Below, piece by piece: positions 967-27,356 of a stretch of DNA of 64,000 bases. Source of the DNA: a virus (Duplodnaviria; Caudoviricetes); IMG/VR virus record IMGVR_UViG_3300044641_005618. One strand, written 5' to 3'. The position numbers and the translations under genes are program-made. Numbering within the stretch: the stretch's first letter is position 1; each line of letters opens with the position of its first letter. A model generated the notes under the pieces. That model saw only the letters and a program-made list of their open reading frames with translations. It was not told the DNA's origin and did no database searches.

Positions 967-1023
967 AGAAAATCCTCCACGCTTGTTATAGCGCAGAGGA
1001 CAGTGCAGTAAAGATTGCTAAAA

Positions 1024-3044
1024 TTAGCCTACACTTGGTGCGGTCAAAGCAACTGGCGTTGCAGCGACAGAGGCCAAATCAAGGGGAAAATTATGGGCAT
1101 TCATTACCCGGTAGGGTAACCGCTGTTTCCAACGGGATCGGACTATATCATCAAATTGCTTTTGCAATTTGTCGGGCGCTAATCTGGTTTTACGTAGCAC
1201 GCTTGTTACACCCAGTAGTCTCTGAACCTTCCTTAGAAGCGTCTAAGGCTTGGCTGCTGATTGGCCCTTGGGCTTTCCAGCAATTCACCCGATTTAAAGA
1301 GCGCAATGCCTAGTTTCACGCTCGTGCATAACTTCTAAGCCTAAATTTGCTTTATTAAGCAAATCTGCCCAAGTGTTAACCACACGACCCTGGCTATCTT
1401 GAATGGACTGGTTAAAATTGAAACCATTTAAGTTAAATCCTGCGACAAAGATACCGCAAGCAGCAAACCAGATTCCAATCACAGGGAGTGCTGCCATAAC
1501 AAAGTGCAGAGAGCGACTATTGTTGAAAGAAGCGTATTGGAACAAGAGGCGTCCCAGATACCCGTGAGCGGACACCAGATTGTAGGTTTCTTGGTTTTGC
1601 CCAAATTTGTAACCGTAGTTCTGACTTTCATTCTCAGTGGTTTCTCTTACCAAAGATGAGGTTACAAGAGAGCCATGTGTGGCACTGATTAAAGCACCTC
1701 CGAACACACCGGCAACTCCAATCATGTGGAAGGGAGACATTAGTATGTTATGCTCCGCAGAAAAAACCAACATGAAATTGAACTGGCCGGAGATTCCCAG
1801 AGGGAATCCGTCAGAGAATGATCCTTGGCTGATGGGGTAAGCCAGGAAAATTGCGGTTGCCGCTGCTACGGGGGCAGAGTAAGCCACGCAAATCCAGGGT
1901 CTTTGGCCGAGGCGATAAGAAAGTTCCCACTCACGCCCCATGTAGCAAAAGATGCCAATAAGGAAGTGGAAAACGATAAGTTGGTAAGGGCCACCATTGT
2001 AGCAGGGTGGCGTCCGCTAGTTCCCTAACGGCGTGGACTATATTATCGTTTTGCTTCGCAAAACAAAACGTCGGGAGCTCTAGCCTGTCATTAAGAAACA
2101 CTGTAGTTTCTCAGGTAGTCTCTGAACGTTCCTCCGGTGTACCGAAGGCTTCGCTGCTGATTGCCCGTTTTGCAGAAGCAAAACTAGGGTTCCCAGTCAA
2201 TTCACCCGATTTAGGGTGGCCCTACAGGCTGAGCCACTCATCAAGGGAAGCAGCTTCCCAGATTGGATAGAACACCTACCCGTAAGTTTCCTTACGGAGC
2301 TGACTATATCATCAACTTGTAAACAAGTCGTCGGGCGCTAGCGGTGTATTACATCCCACGCTTGGGAAACCACCTAGTCGATGAACGTTTCCTAGAAGAT
2401 CGTCTAGGACTTCGCTGCTGATTGCCCGTTTTGCTAAGCAAAACTAGGGTTCCCAGTCAATTCACCCGATTTGCTTACGGCCTCACGGCAGTAAGGCACT
2501 CCTTTACGAATGCAATCCAATCGCATTAGAACTTGGTACTACGGCACCACTGATGCTTTCTCTGTGAGAAAGTGGACTATATCTTCATCTTTGTTTTTGC
2601 AAAGAGCTGGGCGCTCTGTTTACTTCTTTTCGATGTAAAGCCTGTTATTAAGAAACACTGTAGTTTCTCAGGTAGTCTCTGAACGTTCCTCCGGTGTACC
2701 GAAGGCTTCGCTGCTGATTGTCTTAGTATCCCAACTTTGGAGTTGAATACTCAAGGTATCCCAGCAATTCACCCAGTTTACTTCTGCGAATCACTTCGCA
2801 GTGACACCATCTAGATGTTGTTGCCGTACATAAGCGAACCAGCAACTGGCTCACGAATTCCGTCGATATCGACAGGAGGTGCTGCGACGAACGCAACGAT
2901 GAAGCAAATAGTTGCAGCTAGCAACGTGGGGATCATGATTGTACCGAAATTTCCGATATATAACCGGTTGTCGGTACTCGTGACCCAACTAAGGTAACGC
3001 TCCCAAAGATTACTCTGAGGACGTTGTAAAACTGAACTAGCCAT
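1024..3044 (-). CDS. psbA: photosystem II D1 protein, 5 exons (3044-2815, 2555-2510, 2272-2232, 2002-1318, 1101-1024), 359 aa
   Basis: Exons sum to 1080 nt and restore canonical D1 across each junction: YGNNI|[15 protein letters not shown]|[14 protein letters not shown]|YNGGPYQL...VMHER|[10 protein letters not shown]. Confidence 0.97.
1102..1317 (-). mobile_element. group I intron 4 of psbA (216 nt, ORF-less), between codons R334 and N335
   Basis: 5' exon ends in U (CGU), intron ends in G; conserved elements AAAUCGGGUGAAUUGCUGGAA, AAUCAGCAG, GUUCAGAGACUA and GAUAUAGUC. Confidence 0.93.
2003..2231 (-). mobile_element. group I intron 3 of psbA (229 nt, ORF-less), within codon L106
   Basis: P1 pairing of exon GUGGCU with intron GGCCAC places a U.G pair at the splice site; terminal G; core elements present. 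Confidence 0.92.
2273..2509 (-). mobile_element. group I intron 2 of psbA (237 nt, ORF-less), after codon H92 (nt 276)
   Basis: Exon ends CAU, intron ends G before UUC UAU CCA; core elements present. Confidence 0.92.
2556..2814 (-). mobile_element. group I intron 1 of psbA (259 nt, ORF-less), within codon I77
   Basis: Exon ends AU, intron ends G before C AUC AGU GGU; core elements present. Confidence 0.92.
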
Positions 3045-3472: not shown

Positions 3473-4630
3473 TCAGGTAGTGGAGTTAAAGGTCCTATGA
3501 GTCGTATAAGGGGTAGCTTTCAGAGACTCTTCGAAGAATCCGGGTTTGTTTGTCTTAAGCCCTGCCCCAAAAATAACCGTATGCCAAAGGGATATCTCTC
3601 TAGAGCTTTCTTTAAACATGTAAGTTTGATCCAGACTCGCCTCGGAAGAGGTGGAGGGGACCATTTTCCCGTTACTTTTCTTGGCATACTGGTTCATCCC
3701 TGGCGGTCCATCAATTTCTTCCCCGTCCTTCGTCGTTTTTGGTCTGGAAAATCCCATCTTAACATAAGCGTCCATTCTACTCTGACCCCTACCGTCTTCC
3801 GTCCAAGCTTTCGTCGTCACTACGGCGCCCTCTGGAAGAGACTTAACAAGAGCTTCGTACGTACGACGGACGGTGTTTGCCACTTCAATTTGCTCCCCTC
3901 TCTGCGTTACTGTACCCGCGTCATACTTTCCGTTAACCTTAAAGTCGAAGTGTTTTCGCCCAAACTCCGTCTTCACACGATGTCCTGACTTTGTTGTGAC
4001 TTCAGTGACGATGCTCGCAAAGGGGGAAGAAACGAAGACTTTGGTTCCCGCCGGAACGTTGTCCACCATACCGCTTAGGATTTTTTCGTTAGTCTTAAAT
4101 TTGTTTAGTTCCTTGTTGAGCCTTTCCAGCTCAAAGTCTAGGTATTCGTCAGGTTTGGGGTGCTTCTTCTTATACTCATTTAGTTCTTTTATCTTCTCCT
4201 CTATACTCTTCCTGGGCAAACCCCCTGTTAGCTTAGTGGTATCACCTACCAACTCACCTCCGATTTTGGGCTTAGTTGGTTCCTTTGGCTTGGGAGGTAT
4301 CTCTGAACCTTTCTTCTCGTCAATTAGCTTCTGAATCTTGGCGGCCTGGTGAGGCTTTACTCTCGGATCACCTGGAAGCTTTTCCAGGTCCCCGACGGAA
4401 GGGCTCTTAACCGTCTTCCCAACGCGCATTTCTCGAACCCTCGGTGGGACTTCACCCTTGGCCTCTTCCGTACCCTTCCTACACTGCCCCGCCGTCCCAT
4501 ACACAGTACCGTCCGGTTTCACACAGCGTGTAAAGTCATAGGTTTCCCCCTCAGCAAAATCCGCACCTTGCAGTTTAATCACAAGATTCCTGTAGGAATC
4601 TAGCGCAATTTCTGAGAAGTAACCACCCAT
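3473..4630 (-). CDS. modular-family protein: leader + YDFTRC + DPR module + GNAT-like C-terminal domain
   Basis: Start revised to ATG 4630 (MGGYFSEIALDSY); DFAEGETYDFTRCVKPDG; C-terminal GRGQSRMDAYVKMGFS resembles the GNAT R/N-x4-5-Y-x-K-x-G-F motif. Confidence 0.7.
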   Translation of the reverse strand: MGGYFSEIALDSYRNLVIKLQGADFAEGETYDFTRCVKPDGTVYGTAGQCRKGTEEAKGEVPPRVREMRVGKTVKSPSVGDLEKLPGDPRVKPHQAAKIQKLIDEKKGSEIPPKPKEPTKPKIGGELVGDTTKLTGGLPRKSIEEKIKELNEYKKKHPKPDEYLDFELERLNKELNKFKTNEKILSGMVDNVPAGTKVFVSSPFASIVTEVTTKSGHRVKTEFGRKHFDFKVNGKYDAGTVTQRGEQIEVANTVRRTYEALVKSLPEGAVVTTKAWTEDGRGQSRMDAYVKMGFSRPKTTKDGEEIDGPPGMNQYAKKSNGKMVPSTSSEASLDQTYMFKESSREISLWHTVIFGAGLKTNKPGFFEESLKATPYTTHRTFNSTT

Positions 4631-4652
4631 CTGTACAGAGTCAAGTACCAAC

Positions 4653-6461: not shown

Positions 6462-8734
6462 AGGAATAGTTCTCCGGCGACATCAAGATTAGGGAAAGAC
6501 TTGCACGCTGCATCCAGCAGCTTGTTGAATCCGGGTGTTTTCTCCATTTCCCTGTACTTTCTTATAAATTTGTCCCAGTTGGCTCGCTCGTATCCATCTT
6601 CTTCTGTAAAGAAGTATTTTGTACGGTACTTTACTTTGATATTGTTCCTCTTGTCTAAGACCTGAATGTCCCGTGAAACGTATCTTTTTAGATCTCTGTC
6701 AGTTAACTCGGGGCTATCCCCACGACCCTTAAGGGAAGCTGAACGGTGGAGCAGGTTGACTAAAACTTCTTCCGCAGGTGAGGGACTAAACGAGCCAATA
6801 CCAAACCACTCTCCAATTTTTTCCGGGCCACCGAGAAAACTGTGTAGTAAAACGTGGACTCGGTCGTGCTCCCAGTCGACTGAGCCCGGATACGCAGTTA
6901 GGCCAGCTTTTTTCCTCCATTCCTCCGCAGCGGCTTCCACAGCGACGAAGTCCAAGTTGTTCCCCCCTTCAAACAACCTTTTCGGTGCTTTACTTGTTTT
7001 GGGTCGAGGTTTTTTCTTGTCTGCCGCCTGCTCTACCCCTTTGCGACACTTTCCTTTCGTGCCGTACGCAGTGCCATCGGGCCTCACACAACGTGTAAAG
7101 TCATAGCGTTCCTCTTCGGAGAAGCACTCATCGTTTAGCTCAGAGGTGAGCTGTGAGTAGGCAACTAGTGAACTTTCGGAGAATGTTCCGTTCATTTTGC
7201 TCTTGGCGAGGGCTGGGGCAACAGGGTCTTTTGAGGTCGTTTTGCTCTTAGGGGGTGGTTCCCATGAGTGGTCCTTCATGAGCTGATTATACCGTCTTTG
7301 AGCCTCTAACATCCTTGTAATTTCCTCGCGGTTGAGCGCACCCTCCTTGTCGAGTGCCGTTTGCAGTTCAGCCCTGGCTTTTTTCGTCGCCAGGGTGCCC
7401 CCGTAATTCGCCCGCACACGCTCGGTAATGTTCGCGTTAAGAACCATTGCGTTACCCAATTCCTGCCCTCTCAGTTCTCTCTTCGGTGCAAGTTCCTGGC
7501 GCCTTTGACCTTCTTTCGCCGCTCCCCTGGCGGGAGAGGAGTCCCCGACCATCGTGTCTTTCTTCGCCCCTCCAGGGTTCCGATCGTCCATTGCATCGTT
7601 AACACGTCGCATCCGTATTTGGGCCAGTCGATTTCTGTTAGCGTACACAACTCGCCCTGCTCGCCCTTCTGCGTTGGATAACCTGCTCCCCAAAGGTGCC
7701 TGAAGCGCACCACGGTCTCTAAGGTAGTCTTGTGCTTTAGCGCCTATCTGTTCGCCCCTTTTGAACATAGCTTCAGTTCTTCTTGCCATTGCAACTGAGT
7801 GTGGTAATGTACCCCCCTTGGAAGTTGCCGCTTGAGGTCCCTTTAACCCCTCCCCCTGCTTCTCCTTCAACAACTTATTCAGCTGCCCCCTTTGCCTATC
7901 ATTCAGTCTCGGGTCACTCAGAACTTTCTTAAGGTCCTCAGCCCCCAAAGCCTTAATCTTCTCAGTAACCCGCATTCCACCCGGCTTCGCCCCCCTCTTC
8001 TTCTTGTCCGACACCATCTCCTTGCTTGGAGTGGGGTCCGCAGCCTGAGAAATTCGGGCCTTGCTCGGAAACTTTGTGACCCCGCTCGGAGTCAGGTTCT
8101 CTGGTACAAGGGGAACCATCACACCGGTCTCAATTCTCCCTTTGTCCAGGGAGTCCCGAATTTGCATCTTCGTCTGATTGAGCTTTTTATAGGCACTACT
8201 CAACTTTTCAATCTTATCCTGTGTGGTTTTCCTTAGGTCATCAAACTTCGGTGAGTCTGACATGCGCTTCAGCAACCCCTCCTGGCGGCTTAGCTTCTCT
8301 CCCACCTCTTTCATTTTCTCGTTAATTACAGCCCAGTGCTCACCGGTTAGAGCCGCTTTGACTTTGCCCTTTGCACCCACCGTTTGAGTCCGCCCAGAGC
8401 TTTCTACAATCTTCGACCCTTTCGGGAGCATTCCCGCAAGTTGGCTTATTGCATCGTTCTCTCCCTTGTCCTCTTGGACCCCCTTGCGGCAGGTCCCCCC
8501 GGTGCCGTATGCAGTGCCATTGGGGCGGACGCAGCGGGTGTAGTCGTAGTTCTCAATGTATTCTCCGCGAGCCTCACCGGATTTTGCAACAAATTGCTGC
8601 TCTCCACGACTCCTAGCCCCTTCAGAGAAATCTTGAAGTCCCCCTACACTTGAGATGGCGGACGCTTCGTAGCCTGCATCCCGCATCATCGCGAGAAACT
8701 TTTCGGCGGAGTCAGGGGTGAAGGAGCCTTGCAT
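6458..8734 (-). CDS. modular-family protein with two leader + YDFTRC units, a DPR module and a C-terminal HDxxH domain
   Basis: MQGSFTPDS...YDYTRC at the N-terminus; internal MNGTFSESSLVAY (ATG 7195)...CFSEEERYDFTRC; C-terminal WEHDRVHVLLH...AEE. Confidence 0.8.
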   Translation of the reverse strand: MQGSFTPDSAEKFLAMMRDAGYEASAISSVGGLQDFSEGARSRGEQQFVAKSGEARGEYIENYDYTRCVRPNGTAYGTGGTCRKGVQEDKGENDAISQLAGMLPKGSKIVESSGRTQTVGAKGKVKAALTGEHWAVINEKMKEVGEKLSRQEGLLKRMSDSPKFDDLRKTTQDKIEKLSSAYKKLNQTKMQIRDSLDKGRIETGVMVPLVPENLTPSGVTKFPSKARISQAADPTPSKEMVSDKKKRGAKPGGMRVTEKIKALGAEDLKKVLSDPRLNDRQRGQLNKLLKEKQGEGLKGPQAATSKGGTLPHSVAMARRTEAMFKRGEQIGAKAQDYLRDRGALQAPLGSRLSNAEGRAGRVVYANRNRLAQIRMRRVNDAMDDRNPGGAKKDTMVGDSSPARGAAKEGQRRQELAPKRELRGQELGNAMVLNANITERVRANYGGTLATKKARAELQTALDKEGALNREEITRMLEAQRRYNQLMKDHSWEPPPKSKTTSKDPVAPALAKSKMNGTFSESSLVAYSQLTSELNDECFSEEERYDFTRCVRPDGTAYGTKGKCRKGVEQAADKKKPRPKTSKAPKRLFEGGNNLDFVAVEAAAEEWRKKAGLTAYPGSVDWEHDRVHVLLHSFLGGPEKIGEWFGIGSFSPSPAEEVLVNLLHRSASLKGRGDSPELTDRDLKRYVSRDIQVLDKRNNIKVKYRTKYFFTEEDGYERANWDKFIRKYREMEKTPGFNKLLDAACKSFPNLDVAGELFL

Positions 8735-10133: not shown

Positions 10134-11153
10134 TTAGAGGCCGCTCTTGAGTCCGGTGGGCTTGCCCTTGACGCTGGTGACGATCCGACCATCACCGCTA
10201 CCAGGACCCCGATCCCAGAAGATGCGATCAAAGGTGTCGTAGCTGTATTCGTCGTAGGCACCGCCGATGCCGATGTCGTAGCTATCGGAAGCACCATGGC
10301 GGGTGCCAAAGGGATCGTGGACAAGCCAAAGCTTGCGTTCGAGATCGTGCCCAACCAACAACACAATATGGCCACCACTCTTATACTTAACGCCGATCAC
10401 CACTGGAATATCCTTGCTCAAAGAGAGTAGGAGATCATCGGCTGAAATGCTCTGCTGGGTGTAATAAGATTCGATGCCTAGATCCTTGAGGGCCTTGGTC
10501 TGGCAATTGTGATCTATGGTGTCACCGTAGGGGGCAAGCAGCTTCTGGTAAGCCGATTCCGGTTCCTTTAGACCCTGGCTAGTAGCGGAGCGGCTGAGCT
10601 CGCCATTGAGGAGAAAATCAGCCAACATCGTGCAAGAGGTAAGATTGCACTGGCGGTATCCGTTACCAAAGGTGGGATGCCAGTCGTTATCCGTTTGGCC
10701 AAGATATTTGACAGGAAGCTTGATCGCCTGCGGCTGACCCTCAAGCTCGACATGGGGCTGATAGGCATACACCGTATCCAGTTTGGTTTTGCCATCGCTA
10801 GCCAGGATGGGGGTGACAAGCTGGAGCTTGACGTGTTGAAAACGGTCGGGGGTGATAGCGCTGACCGGCAGCCGGGTGCCCGCCTGGACCAAAGTCTTTT
10901 CAGAGGGTTCCAGATCTTGGGAACCGACTGGATGATTTTTAAAAATGGTAGTGATACGGGCGGTTACAGGTTGTGTGGGCGGAGTGTAGGGCGTGCGGTA
11001 TTTTCGCACCCATTTTGCTTCGTCGGTGAGCAGCTCGGGTTGCTTCGCAAAAACTTGCTTAGCAAAGTCGAGGAAAGCAGCTTCTTGGTTGGGGTTATCG
11101 CTTCTACGGTGTCGAACGAAATCGAGAAACTTTTCCGGTGTGAATTGTGGCAT
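10134..11153 (-). CDS. C39-like cysteine peptidase (putative cell-wall hydrolase) sharing an N-terminal module with the GH19 lysin
   Basis: YRQCNLTSCTM (Cys), GGHIVLLVGHD (His), WLVHDPFG (Asp). Confidence 0.8.
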   Translation of the reverse strand: MPQFTPEKFLDFVRHRRSDNPNQEAAFLDFAKQVFAKQPELLTDEAKWVRKYRTPYTPPTQPVTARITTIFKNHPVGSQDLEPSEKTLVQAGTRLPVSAITPDRFQHVKLQLVTPILASDGKTKLDTVYAYQPHVELEGQPQAIKLPVKYLGQTDNDWHPTFGNGYRQCNLTSCTMLADFLLNGELSRSATSQGLKEPESAYQKLLAPYGDTIDHNCQTKALKDLGIESYYTQQSISADDLLLSLSKDIPVVIGVKYKSGGHIVLLVGHDLERKLWLVHDPFGTRHGASDSYDIGIGGAYDEYSYDTFDRIFWDRGPGSGDGRIVTSVKGKPTGLKSGL

Positions 11154-11188
11154 TGTTCCCTGGTTACTTAGTTACTTGGTTACTAAGG

Positions 11189-11196
11189 TTTTACCC
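11189..11196 (-). promoter_or_regulatory. GGGTAAA late-type promoter motif
   Basis: GGGTAAAA, 35 nt before ATG 11153; three 8-nt repeats lie in between. Confidence 0.65.
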
Positions 11197-11246
11197 TCGG
11201 CCCCGTAAGAGGAGTCCCTGAGAGCACAAGGAAAGGTTCCCCCGGC

Positions 11247-11411
11247 CTATGTCTCAGTAGTATCCGTCTTGTACCTGTTAATGCCCCTGATGAAGGAGTC
11301 CATGTTGGTTGCTTTCTCGGCATCTTCGATGAACTTGCGCCTATCCTCGAAAAGGACCGGTTGAATAAGAACAGCGAGAATGCGGCTGATTGTGGGGTCG
11401 TTGATGTTCAT
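11247..11411 (-). CDS. 54-aa ORF translationally coupled to the ART-like protein (candidate immunity/partner)
   Basis: Manual translation MNINDPTISRILAVLIQPVLFEDRRKFIEDAEKATNMDSFIRGINRYKTDTTET; ATGA overlap. Confidence 0.7.
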   Translation of the reverse strand: MNINDPTISRILAVLIQPVLFEDRRKFIEDAEKATNMDSFIRGINRYKTDTTET

Positions 11412-24818: not shown

Positions 24819-25069
24819 AGTGACACAAGGTGAAAGGCGTAAGCAAGATGCTCTGTCCCCTCTATGAAGGTCTTCACAAGAAGGCGAGGAGTGTACAACT
24901 CACAGAGACAACTCAGTTCCTGAACCGTTCCAATCTTGTCGTACAACCCTGCGGGGTCATCTGCCAAGACAAAACCCTCGGATTCCAGTTGCTCCTTGAG
25001 CCTAAGTTGCTTTTGGCATTCGTATGTAAAAGAATCCACGAGGGTTTGTTCAGAGTTTTGTATGTTCAT
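24689..25069 (-). CDS. hypothetical protein
   Basis: 126-aa ORF; ATGA overlap with the helicase stop. Confidence 0.65.
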   Translation of the reverse strand: MNIQNSEQTLVDSFTYECQKQLRLKEQLESEGFVLADDPAGLYDKIGTVQELSCLCELYTPRLLVKTFIEGTEHLAYAFHLVSLWQIVKFGYLVPEPGQYFTTRYIVGVRKVSENSFVPSLRLPLN

Positions 25070-27356
25070 ACTTTTACCCCTTTAGCCTCGTAGAGTTTTT
25101 TACGTGCGGATTCTCGGAACCTTTCAGCAACATCGGGTGAGTAGTTCTTGTCAAGAAGCCAATCGTCACAGCAATTTGTCTTAGGGTTAAGTAGTCTTTG
25201 TTTGTCCATGTCTTCCATGGATTCAACTAGCTTTTCCCCTTCCAAAACAAGTTCCTCTTGAGCGTGACGACAATTGTTCCAGTTTTCAATGACGTAGTTC
25301 GCCTCGCCACCAATCTTAAAACCATCCCTCATCACCAGCTTTTCCATTATCTCTCGAATTAGCGTCAGAGCTGTTTTGTCCTTGGTCTCTTGCCGCTGAC
25401 CCGTCGTTTCGTCGAACAGAAACTCTCGTGCGAGGGAAATTGCCTTTCTCACAGATTCCCACCTTAGCTCTCGGAAACCTTGGTAGTAATGTGTCGACGG
25501 ACGCCCTGCGTTCTCCCACTCTTTTTTCATGCTCGCAGTTAAGTGTTGGCACGACGGGTCCACTCCCACAAAGTAAAGAGAACTGAGATACTCGTAGAGA
25601 ACGTCCGGCGTCAGCTCGGGCATGAAGCTAAGGTCTGACCCCGTTCGAACCGAGTGAGCGAACGCCATGGCATTAACGAGTGCCTGTGTGACATCGGCTT
25701 TGAATCGGATCCTTTGTCGTGTGGTCCAATAGCGCACTTCAACCTGAAGGCGATTGATGCGGGGATCAGCTACATCGTTAATGATTTCCCAGAACCTATC
25801 GGTAGCGAGGCGGAGACACCAAAGATACAACGCATCAGCACTCACACCTAGCTTATTAGCGAGGTAAGGAATGTGTGCTCGTGGGCGAAGGTCGGGAGAC
25901 CCCTCTGACACTGTCCCTTTCGTGTTCTCGATGTTTTTTGTTACCTCGTACTCCCTATATGTACTAATGAGCTTAATTCGATCTATGATCCCGGGGTCGA
26001 GATCGTAGGCAAACTTACTGTTCCAGTCATTGGAGTTAACCAATATGACTGTCTTTGGCCAAATTTGCTCGGCCTTCTCGAACTTTTCTTCTACTTGAAA
26101 TACCATGTGTTCAGACAACCTCGCTATGGTTATCTCGGGTCTTACCCAGCTGAATGTTACCATTCAGAGCAGACTATATCTTACTCCCCTTAGGGAGTCT
26201 TCCCGTTTCGAACCGCTTGGCTCTACTCTCTTTCGAGATAGTCGTTAGGCTTTCAAACCTTTCGGTTTGTTTAGCACGGTAGATTGCCCGTGGTACACAC
26301 GGGGTTCCCCCGTTTAGGGAAGTTTGCTCTCCGGTGTTTCCACCAGAGGGGGCTATACCGTCAAGCTAACCCATTCGTAATCAGAATCTTGGTCTCCTCA
26401 GAAGCAAGGAACTTCTTGAGAGAAGCCAAGGAGGTATCATCCTTGTATGCTATGTCACTAAGAGCAGCAGCTTTAAGGCCGAAGCGATCCTCAGTCGATT
26501 TAAACGTGTGAGTTACAAAACCGCACTTGGAAAAAGCTGCGGTCATTCCATTGAAGAGAGTCGACTTTCCTAATCCAGCATCCTTACCCACAATCACCCC
26601 CGCCATACGAGCAGTGTGATCTACAGGCTGGTCCTTTCCCGGTGGCAAGTGATTTGACCTGCCGACACCAATTCGCCCAATAATTAGTCTAAGCATTTCC
26701 CTCTCGGCTTCAGGAAAGATTGAGAAAACGTCAGCTAAGGTCACCATTTGCAGAACAGGGTTGAACCAGTCTCTGTCGGGAACCCACGACCTTGGATTAG
26801 AGACAGGAACTCCACCCCACCGAGCCGCAGGGTCAAACGTATGGCCGTAACTTAGCGTGTCATGAATGCTCTTGCTCATGTTTATTCTCTTCATCTTCAG
26901 CAGCCGCTCTGTGAAAGAGACGAGATCTGAGTCACCGGCTTTCGGCTTGAATAAAGGTTCCCAGAAAGTTCTTACGTCGTCTGGACACAAGTCAGGGTGA
27001 AAACAGGATTCGATCTTCTCAAAGTCGTCGTACACTGATATGTCTTGCAAAGGGTTGAAGTCTGCCGGGTACTGAATTCCCCTTACCATTACAGGTGGCG
27101 TGGGCTTCAGAATGCGGTGCCTACAGTGATCACCTGACTCGTCAATTTCAACAACGAACCCCCTCGCCTTCAGTAGAGTAATGCCTGAGTTGTAAAGCTC
27201 GGACACTTTTGTGGGTGCTCTTTTTTTCTTCTCTTGTTTTTCCTCTCCGTCTTTCTTCGACCGGAAGGACGCTGCCTTGTTTCGCTCTTTTGCTTCGGTT
27301 AGTATTCCAATCTCTTGTTTCGTACTTCCGAGTCCCCCGGAAAAGGGATCTGCCAT
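25066..27356 (-). CDS. superfamily 3 (D5-like) helicase/NTPase, 2 exons (27356-26369, 26102-25066), 674 aa
   Basis: Walker A GKDAGLGKST, Walker B-like IAYKDD; splicing restores KILITNGLFQVEEKF and motif C ILVNSN; exons sum to 2025 nt. Confidence 0.8.
26103..26368 (-). mobile_element. group I intron (266 nt, ORF-less) in the SF3 helicase gene
   Basis: P1 GGGUUA/UAGCCC with the U.G pair at 26369; GACUAU and AAGAUAUAGUC core; P9 CUGAAUG-GUAA-CAUUCAG GNRA hairpin; terminal G at 26103. Confidence 0.85.

Follow-up and report, generated by a model that had tools for sequence, protein, structure and literature searches.

A divergent viral D1 lineage from freshwater that retains the water-oxidation residues and carries altered ChlD1 and QB surroundings

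The D1 subunit of photosystem II (PSII) is among the most conserved proteins known. A psbA gene at positions 1024-3044, minus strand, of a 64,000-nucleotide viral sequence (hereafter the window) departs strongly from this norm, and raises the question of whether its departures mark a working viral D1 and, if so, of what kind. A preliminary description suggested a phage D1 with retuned charge separation, quinone exchange or turnover, possibly a new D1 class. The phage origin of the gene is borne out by its surroundings, as the window encodes a tape measure protein, tail fibres, RNR, PhoH and primase. Further phage-type genes encode thymidylate synthase and UvrD helicase, and the tape measure protein shares 33% identity with its counterpart in Synechococcus phage S-CBWM1.

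The 359-aa D1 in standard numbering is the product predicted after excision of four group I introns from between five exons, all on the minus strand. Exon 1 (3044-2815) starts with the ATG at 3044, covers codons 1 to 76.67, ends in U and is colinear with intronless relatives. It is followed by intron 1 (2814-2556; 259 nt, without ORF, last base G; Rfam RF00028, 74.6 bits), exon 2 (2555-2510; 46 nt, to codon 92), intron 2 (2509-2273; 237 nt; Rfam, 104.6 bits), exon 3 (2272-2232; 41 nt, to codon 105.67) and intron 3 (2231-2003; 229 nt; Rfam, 67.5 bits). Exon 4 (2002-1318) spans codons 106-334 and holds Y161, D170, E189, H190, H198, H215, H272, H332 and E333. Intron 4 (1317-1102; 216 nt; Rfam, 97 bits) is inserted after codon 334, and exon 5 (1101-1024; codons 335-359, stop at 1026-1024) supplies H337, D342 and A344, beyond which the protein extends by 15 aa at its C terminus. 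Scores of the four RF00028 matches range from 67 to 105 bits (E 6e-15 to 4e-26), and U is the last base of each 5' exon, as G is of each intron. Each insertion site is also occupied by an intron in relatives (L019 and L025 for intron 1, L006 and L008 for intron 2, L019 and L023 for intron 3, L024 for intron 4).

The spliced protein aligns with the intronless relatives L001 and L014 at 359 of 359 positions without gaps, and exon 4 matches solved D1 chains over D1 residues 107-334 (E 2e-129), gapless and in register, so the standard numbering used in the preliminary description holds. Pfam PF00124 relatives were found for the exon 4 product, in keeping with a Photo_RC fold. About 25 nt past the psbA stop, a consensus scan predicts a terminator-like hairpin (972-1001, minus strand; a 12 bp stem, then a T run). 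The PhotoRC-II RNA motif is described upstream of cyanophage psbA and occurs upstream of psbA in many relatives of the window gene; none was found upstream of the window psbA, even at E values up to 1. With this architecture the four introns would self-splice to yield an mRNA for a 359-aa pre-D1, which the host would presumably trim after A344 before its insertion into host photosystem II beside host D2, a use that we liken to that thought for marine cyanophage D1.

Residues required for water oxidation and electron transfer are retained throughout. The window D1 carries all Mn4CaO5 ligands (D170, E189, H332, E333, H337, D342, A344) together with D61, Y161 and H190, and 27 or more of 30 clade relatives keep each of these positions. 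It also keeps the P680 ligand H198, the iron ligands H215 and H272, and the QB/bicarbonate residues H252, S264, E244 and Y246. With Q165, M127, G128 and the high-light type E130 (present in 31 of 31 clade rows checked), a residue-by-residue check thus accounts for all 21 residues reported earlier as retained. Because all checked Mn4CaO5, TyrZ, P680, non-haem iron and bicarbonate residues are present, we propose that the chemistry of water oxidation is kept. The same residues separate this protein from ChlF (G1) and rogue or sentinel D1 (G2), which are likewise divergent D1 paralogues but are without the OEC ligands: ChlF has Q127/D128, as seen in the ChlF-like P0138, whereas the window has M127/G128 and intact ligands, and the C-terminal ligands H332, E333, H337, D342 and A344 set it apart from rogue D1. 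Both exclusions made in the preliminary description therefore stand.

All 21 substitutions first listed, from W32N through A294G, are likewise present. Several of these positions are less near-invariant than first stated. In a set of 94 other D1, either H or W stands at position 32, 17 sequences have A at 286, 13 have F or L at 278, 9 have L or V at 274, and 4 vary at each of 211, 243 and 255. Yet the overall divergence lies far beyond that of ordinary D1. Of the positions conserved to 90% or more in 167 other D1, the window departs at 26, the median among the 167 themselves being 2, and agrees at all the rest. G164, M172, T179, M214, L275 and A294 are invariant in the 167, marine phage D1 included. 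We also found clade-wide changes beyond the earlier list, namely V115I, V157I, I248L, I259L and L288C.

The substitutions form three units, all within exon 4. The ChlD1/donor-side unit (1735-1851, minus strand; codons 157-195) comprises V157I, G164S, M172F (1806-1804), T179Q (1785-1783), Q187S and H195S. The QB-pocket unit (1486-1689, minus strand; codons 211-278) comprises F211I, M214T, E242N, E243Q, I248L, A250S, F255L, I259L, F274V, L275M and W278L and, as first noted, includes residues of the QB/herbicide niche. The third unit, at the lumenal end of helix E (1438-1464, minus strand; codons 286-294), comprises T286A, L288C, S291F, T292V, M293A and A294G. S164, F172 and Q179, and with them F291 and G294, are shared by 27 of 30 distinct relatives, against 0 of 167 other D1. 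The helix E changes constantly accompany the ChlD1/donor unit, and from this co-inheritance only we infer that the ChlD1 unit may be in structural contact with helix E residues 288-294. The QB unit is separable from the ChlD1/donor unit, because natural mosaics carry one unit only: P0035, P0055 and P0061 have it by itself, and P0018, L016, L020 and L025 lack it.

We read the locus, with a probability of roughly 0.6, as a working cyanophage psbA of a virus-only lineage in which two cofactor pockets were rebuilt and then conserved, with altered ChlD1 and QB behaviour. Its carrier would be a large tailed cyanophage of lake water, and a burst of change in the lineage would have preceded the conservation of both pockets. 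In the ChlD1 (primary donor) pocket, V157I, G164S, M172F, T179Q and H195N/S are consistently coupled with L288C, S291F, T292x, M293x and A294G. The QB niche would have become more aliphatic and more hydroxylated through F211I/V, M214T, I248L, F255L, I259L, F274V, L275M and W278L/F.

What such changes might do can be gauged from published work. M172 and T179, placed near ChlD1 in the preliminary description, are indeed both among the ChlD1-tuning residues identified by QM/MM: in these calculations M172 lies 3.7 Å from ChlD1 and stabilises ChlD1* by ~10 meV, T179 hydrogen-bonds the ChlD1 ligand-water network, and both stabilise ChlD1+ (PMC7368266). A natural M172L in PsbA2 shifts the ChlD1-PheoD1 charge-transfer state (PMC12107152). 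Engineered Synechocystis D1-T179H/V mutants identify residue 179 as controlling the spectroscopic behaviour of ChlD1 (Schlodder et al. 2008, cited by PMC10498673 and PMC5851703), T179H shifting the ChlD1 Qy band (as cited in PMC10498673). As these citing papers present them, the mutants are laboratory single changes, whereas Q179 of the window is natural, conserved and set amid ~10 co-inherited changes. Without the sulfur contact of M172, and with the axial water of ChlD1 ligated or hydrogen-bonded differently at 179, ChlD1 would be expected to change in site energy and redox potential, and primary charge separation and recombination to change in their energetics. Some of the lost interactions could be made good by F172 and Q179. 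The QB changes may alter plastoquinone binding, exchange and inhibitor sensitivity. From the residues involved we reasonably infer that charge separation or quinone exchange may be retuned, as first suggested. The likely selective benefit would be a PSII that still supplies energy, with less photodamage, during infection.

A stronger version of this reading we hold only tentatively, at somewhat less than an even chance. The lineage may constitute a virus-only D1 class in which Gln179 ligates or hydrogen-bonds at the position of the purple-bacterial accessory-bacteriochlorophyll His ligand, Phe172 stands in for the Met sulfur contact and the QB pocket is de-aromatised. Hybrid PSII of viral D1 and host D2 would then be altered in charge separation, recombination/ROS yield, quinone exchange and herbicide sensitivity. 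A conserved natural lineage in which M172 and T179 are both replaced, while water oxidation is kept, would offer PSII biophysics a version of the primary donor site that evolution has already tested. Together with the single-unit mosaics it could test QM/MM predictions on ChlD1 tuning, the separability of the units meaning that nature has supplied the single-unit controls. The rebuilt QB niche may also alter the herbicide sensitivity of PSII in infected freshwater picocyanobacteria.

Could the same pattern have arisen with PSII left essentially standard? A functional D1 under relaxed constraint, in a gene needed for hours, might have drifted and had compensatory changes locked in, an explanation we regard as unlikely though serious. 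A long stem followed by conservation suits drift and compensation as well as it suits adaptation, tight coupling between the ChlD1 unit and helix E is what compensation predicts, and several of the changed positions are less invariant than first claimed. However, the six positions fixed in the 167 other D1 are fixed also in marine phage D1, whose working life is equally short. Moreover, the new states are conserved, with a median within-clade omega of 0.069, across a clade whose synonymous sites have had time to saturate, and some of the QB changes recur, independently, in the Nostocales paralogue described below. Comparison of the window with L001 gave pN 0.078 and pS 0.82 (saturated). The dN/dS check proposed earlier thus points to strong purifying selection (pN/pS at most 0.10, with synonymous sites saturated), and so not to decay.

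The reading of a working viral D1 is further informed by the distribution of its relatives. The window D1 belongs to a clade of about 35 D1, every member of which comes from viral or metagenome contigs. The clade is supported at 100/100 with 27 rows, on a stem of 0.29 substitutions per site, and at SH-aLRT 100 with 35 rows in a second tree. In the best tree it is nested within picocyanobacterial and cyanophage G4 D1, in a 51-row group with Cyanobium (99/98), while an AU test did not reject a position outside, as sister to, all sampled G4 D1 (p 0.37). These trees were built with G0, G2 and G3 sequences left out and the ChlF-like P0138 as outgroup; a search of 50%-identity representatives returned mainly fragments and frameshifted D1, P0138 and P0180 being the usable outgroups. 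The lineage most likely derives from a picocyanobacterial or cyanophage standard (G4) D1. The suggested new D1 class is too strong a term for a clade that the best tree nests in G4. The preliminary description had also named, as a ground for refutation, a place inside a known D1 clade with these residues; the ~35 viral or metagenomic D1 do share them, so that this ground formally applies in part, but the clade is unnamed, and our literature search found no account of it or of this residue set.

The clade covers at least two phage types, the jumbo lineage of the window (with L001, L014 and L015) and others in T4-like contexts marked by SbcC-like gp46, PstS and an HNH-bearing intron. Four clade viral records, each 22-58% complete, carry psbA only, without psbD. 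In virus record G001, the nearest to the window (16% complete), there was no Photo_RC match in 45 kb. PCR surveys place lake psbA amplicons together inside the marine cyanophage cluster (PMC8891191).

These distributions bear on whether the gene was simply copied from unsampled freshwater cyanobacteria whose D1 and matching D2 have these pockets. Phage psbA generally tracks host gene pools (10.64898/2026.07.15.738324), and a deep placement is compatible with the AU test. Against this, the F172+Q179 motif gave 0 matches in 185,579 species genomes. Its 26 contigs (12 from IMG/VR, 14 from JGI metagenomes) are all viral or metagenomic, with phage-like flanks wherever these are long enough, and the closest cellular D1 reach 81-84% identity over exon 4, the closest isolated-phage D1 83%. 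The QB-unit pattern had no true match in 401 genomes of the Cyanobium order; two apparent matches were F255 sequences, since the YTN codons of the query match Phe too. We consider such a host source improbable. In a recent view, cyanophage D1 is embedded in host diversity without diverged viral lineages; the clade suggests that this view fails in lakes.

Known D1 types provide partial parallels. The virus-encoded, standard-type D1 of cyanophages isolated from marine and estuarine waters (S-PM2, S-CREM1, S-PRM1, S-H68, S-TIP37) likewise have all ligands; with Cyanobium they form the nearest named group in the tree. They are 80-83% identical over exon 4 and have none of the residues of the ChlD1, helix E and QB units, except A286, which S-PM2 and S-CREM1 share with the window. 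In S-PM2, psbA is interrupted by a group I intron around codon 334, near the site of intron 4, so that one intron in isolated cyanophage psbA compares with four, and no PhotoRC-II, in the window.

Microaerobic D1' (G3) has the signature G80A, F158L, T286A. The window has G80, F158 and A286, one of the three, while some clade members have two and P0016 all three, G80A occurring in about half of the clade. The window thus falls short of the full signature, and in a tree built without G3 sequences the clade nests with picocyanobacterial G4 D1. PsbA2, of the microaerobic type, is the only well-studied natural D1 changed at 172 (M172L) and has A286 (PMC7368266, PMC12107152); in the window G80, F158 and P173 are unchanged and residue 172 is F, not L. 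It is also changed at T179, where these two papers list no change for PsbA2.

A D1INT-like paralogue of Nostocales (P0069 from Nodularia, P0072 and P0084 from Nostoc, and P0042) shares F211I/V, F255L, F274V and W278L with the viral clade, but has W260, Q130 and a standard ChlD1 side (M172, T179, S291, A294). As the two are separate branches, the shared QB changes look like convergence. D1INT is reported to have changes that face the electron acceptors, and it is suspected to be photoresistant (PMC9740203). Its markers are given as W126 and W260 (Sheridan et al. 2020, cited by PMC9740203); Y126 and F260, found in the window and in all clade rows with these positions filled (30 and 31 of 31), rule out D1INT identity. 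D1FR, with chlorophyll d/f at ChlD1, is marked by Y120 with T155 (PMC9740203). L120 in the window, and L or M across the clade, exclude it, T155 being uninformative here since ordinary D1 in the alignment also have T.

Heavy remodelling of the QB niche raises a further question, namely whether the protein assembles into PSII mainly as a protective or throttling subunit, with slow QB turnover, safe recombination and reduced ROS, in place of linear electron flow. The loss of conserved F255, a residue used as representative of the QB/herbicide-binding region (PMC13475299), and the clade-wide E130 would fit such a role. Complete conservation of TyrZ/H190 and of all ligands of the OEC, the iron and bicarbonate argues instead for selection on full water-to-quinone turnover, and we judge this altered role very improbable. 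Finally, a decaying gene or assembly artefact, which the odd sequence and four interruptions might suggest, can be dismissed given the open spliced frame, the low pN/pS, the intron scores, contigs of two lake runs that cover identical DNA and the presence of the region in runs of 16 studies.

Many studies have lake or freshwater metagenomes that contain the window sequence. In two freshwater metatranscriptome runs, no psbA contig bridged an intron with 31 letters or more to either side, and the missing intron cover in these runs is uninformative on splicing. Contig pieces of exon 4 were present in both runs at ~99-100% identity, for which contaminating DNA is a possible source: 1405-1543 (no differences), 1618-1751 and 1743-2002. 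The last of these ends exactly at the exon 4 edge, with 16 letters unaligned.

The psbA gene occupies positions 1024-3044 of the window on the minus strand, where it is interrupted by four full-length group I introns of 259, 237, 229 and 216 nt (67-105 bits, Rfam). Exon junctions were set by D1 colinearity, the U that ends each 5' exon and the G that ends each intron, placing exon 1 at 3044-2815, exon 2 at 2555-2510, exon 3 at 2272-2232, exon 4 at 2002-1318 and exon 5 at 1101-1024, all on the minus strand. The resulting coding sequence of 1080 nt encodes 359 aa, and the spliced protein aligns without gaps to its intronless relatives. Exon 4 matches residues 107-334 of D1 in solved PSII structures (E 2e-129), thus standard numbering is valid for the window D1. 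A hairpin resembling a terminator lies downstream of the psbA stop codon.

The four introns sit after codon positions 76.67, 92.0, 105.67 and 334.0, and every one of these sites is reused in related psbA genes of the same D1 clade, on contigs L006, L007, L011, L016, L019, L023, L024 and L025. Further introns interrupt these genes near codons 60, 185 and 330, and intron load among clade relatives ranges from zero to at least three per gene. The window's own psbA introns (1102-2814) are without ORF. After codon 185.33, introns of ~880 nt in L011 (10496-11376) and L024 (7190-8069) each encode a 222-aa HNH endonuclease (ORFs 10622-11290 and 7316-7984, respectively; phrog_1271), and an intron of equal length at this site in L023 holds a 225-aa ORF.

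The window D1 was aligned with 30 distinct relatives from its own clade and with 94 further distinct D1 sequences. The preliminary description had listed residues retained at the functional sites and substitutions at normally near-invariant positions; every entry in both lists is present in the window D1, and only the near-invariance was over-described, for positions 32, 211, 243, 255, 274, 278 and 286. Clade-wide changes beyond that list are V115I, V157I, I248L, I259L and L288C. Named cyanobacterial D1 brought the non-clade set to 167 distinct sequences. Of the positions conserved to at least 90%, the window D1 deviates at 26, against a median of 2 in the other sequences and a range of 25 to 51 within the clade.

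Intact ligands show that the protein is not a rogue D1 and, together with M127/G128, not ChlF, as had been proposed. Likewise, Y126/F260 rules out D1INT and L120 rules out D1FR. One of three D1' markers is present. The suggestion of a new D1 class is too strong; the lineage is best described as a new variant of standard D1, restricted to viruses.

In a word-indexed search against 5.8 billion proteins, ordinary D1 came up at ~80-82% identity to the window D1, together with a closer set at 84-95% (P0005, P0008, P0011, P0012, P0016, P0018 and P0035). We then scanned with a degenerate DNA pattern encoding a 14-residue stretch that includes F172 and Q179. The pattern matched 12 IMG/VR contigs and 14 JGI metagenome contigs, and had no match in 185,579 bacterial and archaeal species, one genome each. 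Top cellular D1 in these genomes reach 81-84% identity over exon 4 and are scattered across diverse cyanobacteria; in 50,697 phage records, the top D1 reaches 83%. The window D1 is, judging from these searches, one of a sizeable virus-only lineage and not unique.

Maximum-likelihood trees place the window in a clade of 35 rows (SH-aLRT 100) or 27 rows (UFBoot 100 / SH-aLRT 100), on a stem of 0.27-0.29 substitutions per site, several-fold longer than other internal branches. The clade joins D1 of Cyanobium and of phages S-PM2, S-CREM1, S-PRM1, S-H68 and S-TIP37 with support of 99/98. An alternative uniting all other sampled standard D1 in one clade without the viral lineage was 8.2 lnL units worse and is not rejected by the AU test (p 0.37), and the sample did not include groups G0, G2 and G3; derivation within standard D1 (G4) is therefore the best reading, not a settled one. 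Three independent features hint at a relationship to known cyanophage psbA. The intron site at codon 334 is shared, S-PM2 having an intron at about this place; S-PM2 and S-CREM1 also have A286; and many clade members carry, ahead of psbA, the PhotoRC-II RNA motif known from cyanophages. PhotoRC-II (RF01717) scores 46-62 bits immediately ahead of psbA in L003, L004, L006-L008, L011, L012, L016, L023 and L024; it was not found upstream of the window psbA, even at a permissive threshold.

Over codons 12-344, the window and its closest relative, L001, differ with pN 0.078 and pS 0.82. As pS is beyond saturation, omega can be no higher than the raw ratio, 0.095. The pair is 75.5% identical in nucleotides and 89% in full-length protein. 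Where dS could be measured within the clade, pairwise omega has a median of 0.069 and reaches at most 0.25, which excludes the decay that had been raised as a possibility and indicates that the clade's new residues are themselves conserved. The preliminary observation is confirmed and its interpretation supported in part: the window psbA is a real, selected viral D1 whose rebuilt ChlD1 and QB pockets are conserved. The proportion of synonymous differences from L001 is 0.82-0.88, versus 0.75 expected at saturation, a hint that phages with nearly the same D1 protein differ in their codon or base-composition preferences.

The substitutions fall into units. Unit 1a, on the ChlD1/donor side, comprises V157I, G164S, M172F, T179Q and H195N/S; unit 1b, at the lumenal end of helix E, L288C/A, S291F, T292M/V/I, M293S/A and A294G; and unit 2, in the QB niche, F211I/V, M214T, I248L, F255L, I259L, F274V, L275M and W278L/F. 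The window and a few relatives additionally share M139Q, Q187S, E242N, T292V, M293A and R323K. In our table of diagnostic positions units 1a and 1b are never apart, F291/G294 occurring in every sequence with F172/Q179, and unit 2 is separable from both. Unit 2 accompanies a standard ChlD1 side in P0035, P0055 and P0061; P0018, L016, L020 and L025 combine units 1a and 1b with a segment 211-278 that is standard throughout. These mosaics imply recombination with breakpoints around codons 195-211 and 278-286. That units 1a and 1b stay together although the segment between them has been swapped suggests that they are structurally coupled, and one gene-conversion tract would also explain it. Four unit 2 changes (F211I/V, F255L, F274V and W278L) recur in a cellular, D1INT-like Nostocales paralogue with W260 (P0042; P0069 from Nodularia; P0072 and P0084 from Nostoc), apparently by independent convergence.

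Residues 211, 214, 255, 274 and 275 belong to the classical QB/herbicide niche. In the QB region the viral lineage has lost four aromatic side chains, and the catalytic residues are untouched. F255 serves as a marker of the niche in PMC13475299. In QM/MM calculations M172 lies 3.7 A away from ChlD1, whose HOMO mixes with the sulfur orbital of M172, stabilising ChlD1* by ~10 meV and ChlD1+ by ~22 meV; T179 hydrogen-bonds the water network ligating ChlD1 (~4 meV for ChlD1*, ~35 meV for ChlD1+), and jointly they help make ChlD1 the lowest-energy site and primary donor (PMC7368266). Both computed ChlD1-tuning residues are therefore replaced in the viral lineage. The natural M172L of PsbA2 gives a calculated shift of the ChlD1-PheoD1 charge-transfer state, and T286, with A286 as natural variant, hydrogen-bonds PD1 (PMC12107152). 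T179H moves the Qy band and the triplet signals of ChlD1, as cited in PMC10498673. We infer that ChlD1 energetics and quinone or inhibitor binding would be altered; functional retuning is plausible.

Among the genes in the window are those for collagen-type tail fibres, for a tape measure protein that shares 33% identity with its counterpart in Synechococcus phage S-CBWM1, and for thymidylate synthase, PhoH, a UvrD-type helicase and the two subunits of RNR. The primase gene is interrupted by another group I intron, the fifth (26150-26378, minus strand, 51.9 bits, Rfam), and its halves, ORFs 25066-26163 and 26361-27356, match positions 9-303 and 304-608 of phrog_25243 (DNA primase). Flanking genes are common to the window and L001/L002, L014/L028 and L015 only. 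In other clade members the neighbours are SbcC-like gp46, PstS, glycosyltransferases and homing endonucleases, and these phages look like T4-like cyanomyoviruses. The differing flanks argue that this D1 lineage circulates in at least two kinds of phage.

Metagenome runs of lake water and freshwater, from 16 studies in all, contain the psbA region; seven of the runs contain at least half of its sampled words. No description of the clade's residue set was found in the literature. This lake lineage is a counter-example to the recent view of cyanophage D1 as embedded in host diversity. In lake PCR surveys, psbA amplicons group together within the marine cyanophage cluster (PMC8891191); they may or may not belong to the same clade.

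The 392-aa ORF flanking psbA gives a weak PhiKZ gp244-like match, under the Pfam cut-off. The two flanking ORFs, 2-184 and 3473-4651 (both minus), have a similar N-terminal stretch, SLYGSSYDFTRCVRPNGTAYGTAGTCR versus EGETYDFTRCVKPDGTVYGTAGQCRKG, suggesting that different proteins carry a common leader module.
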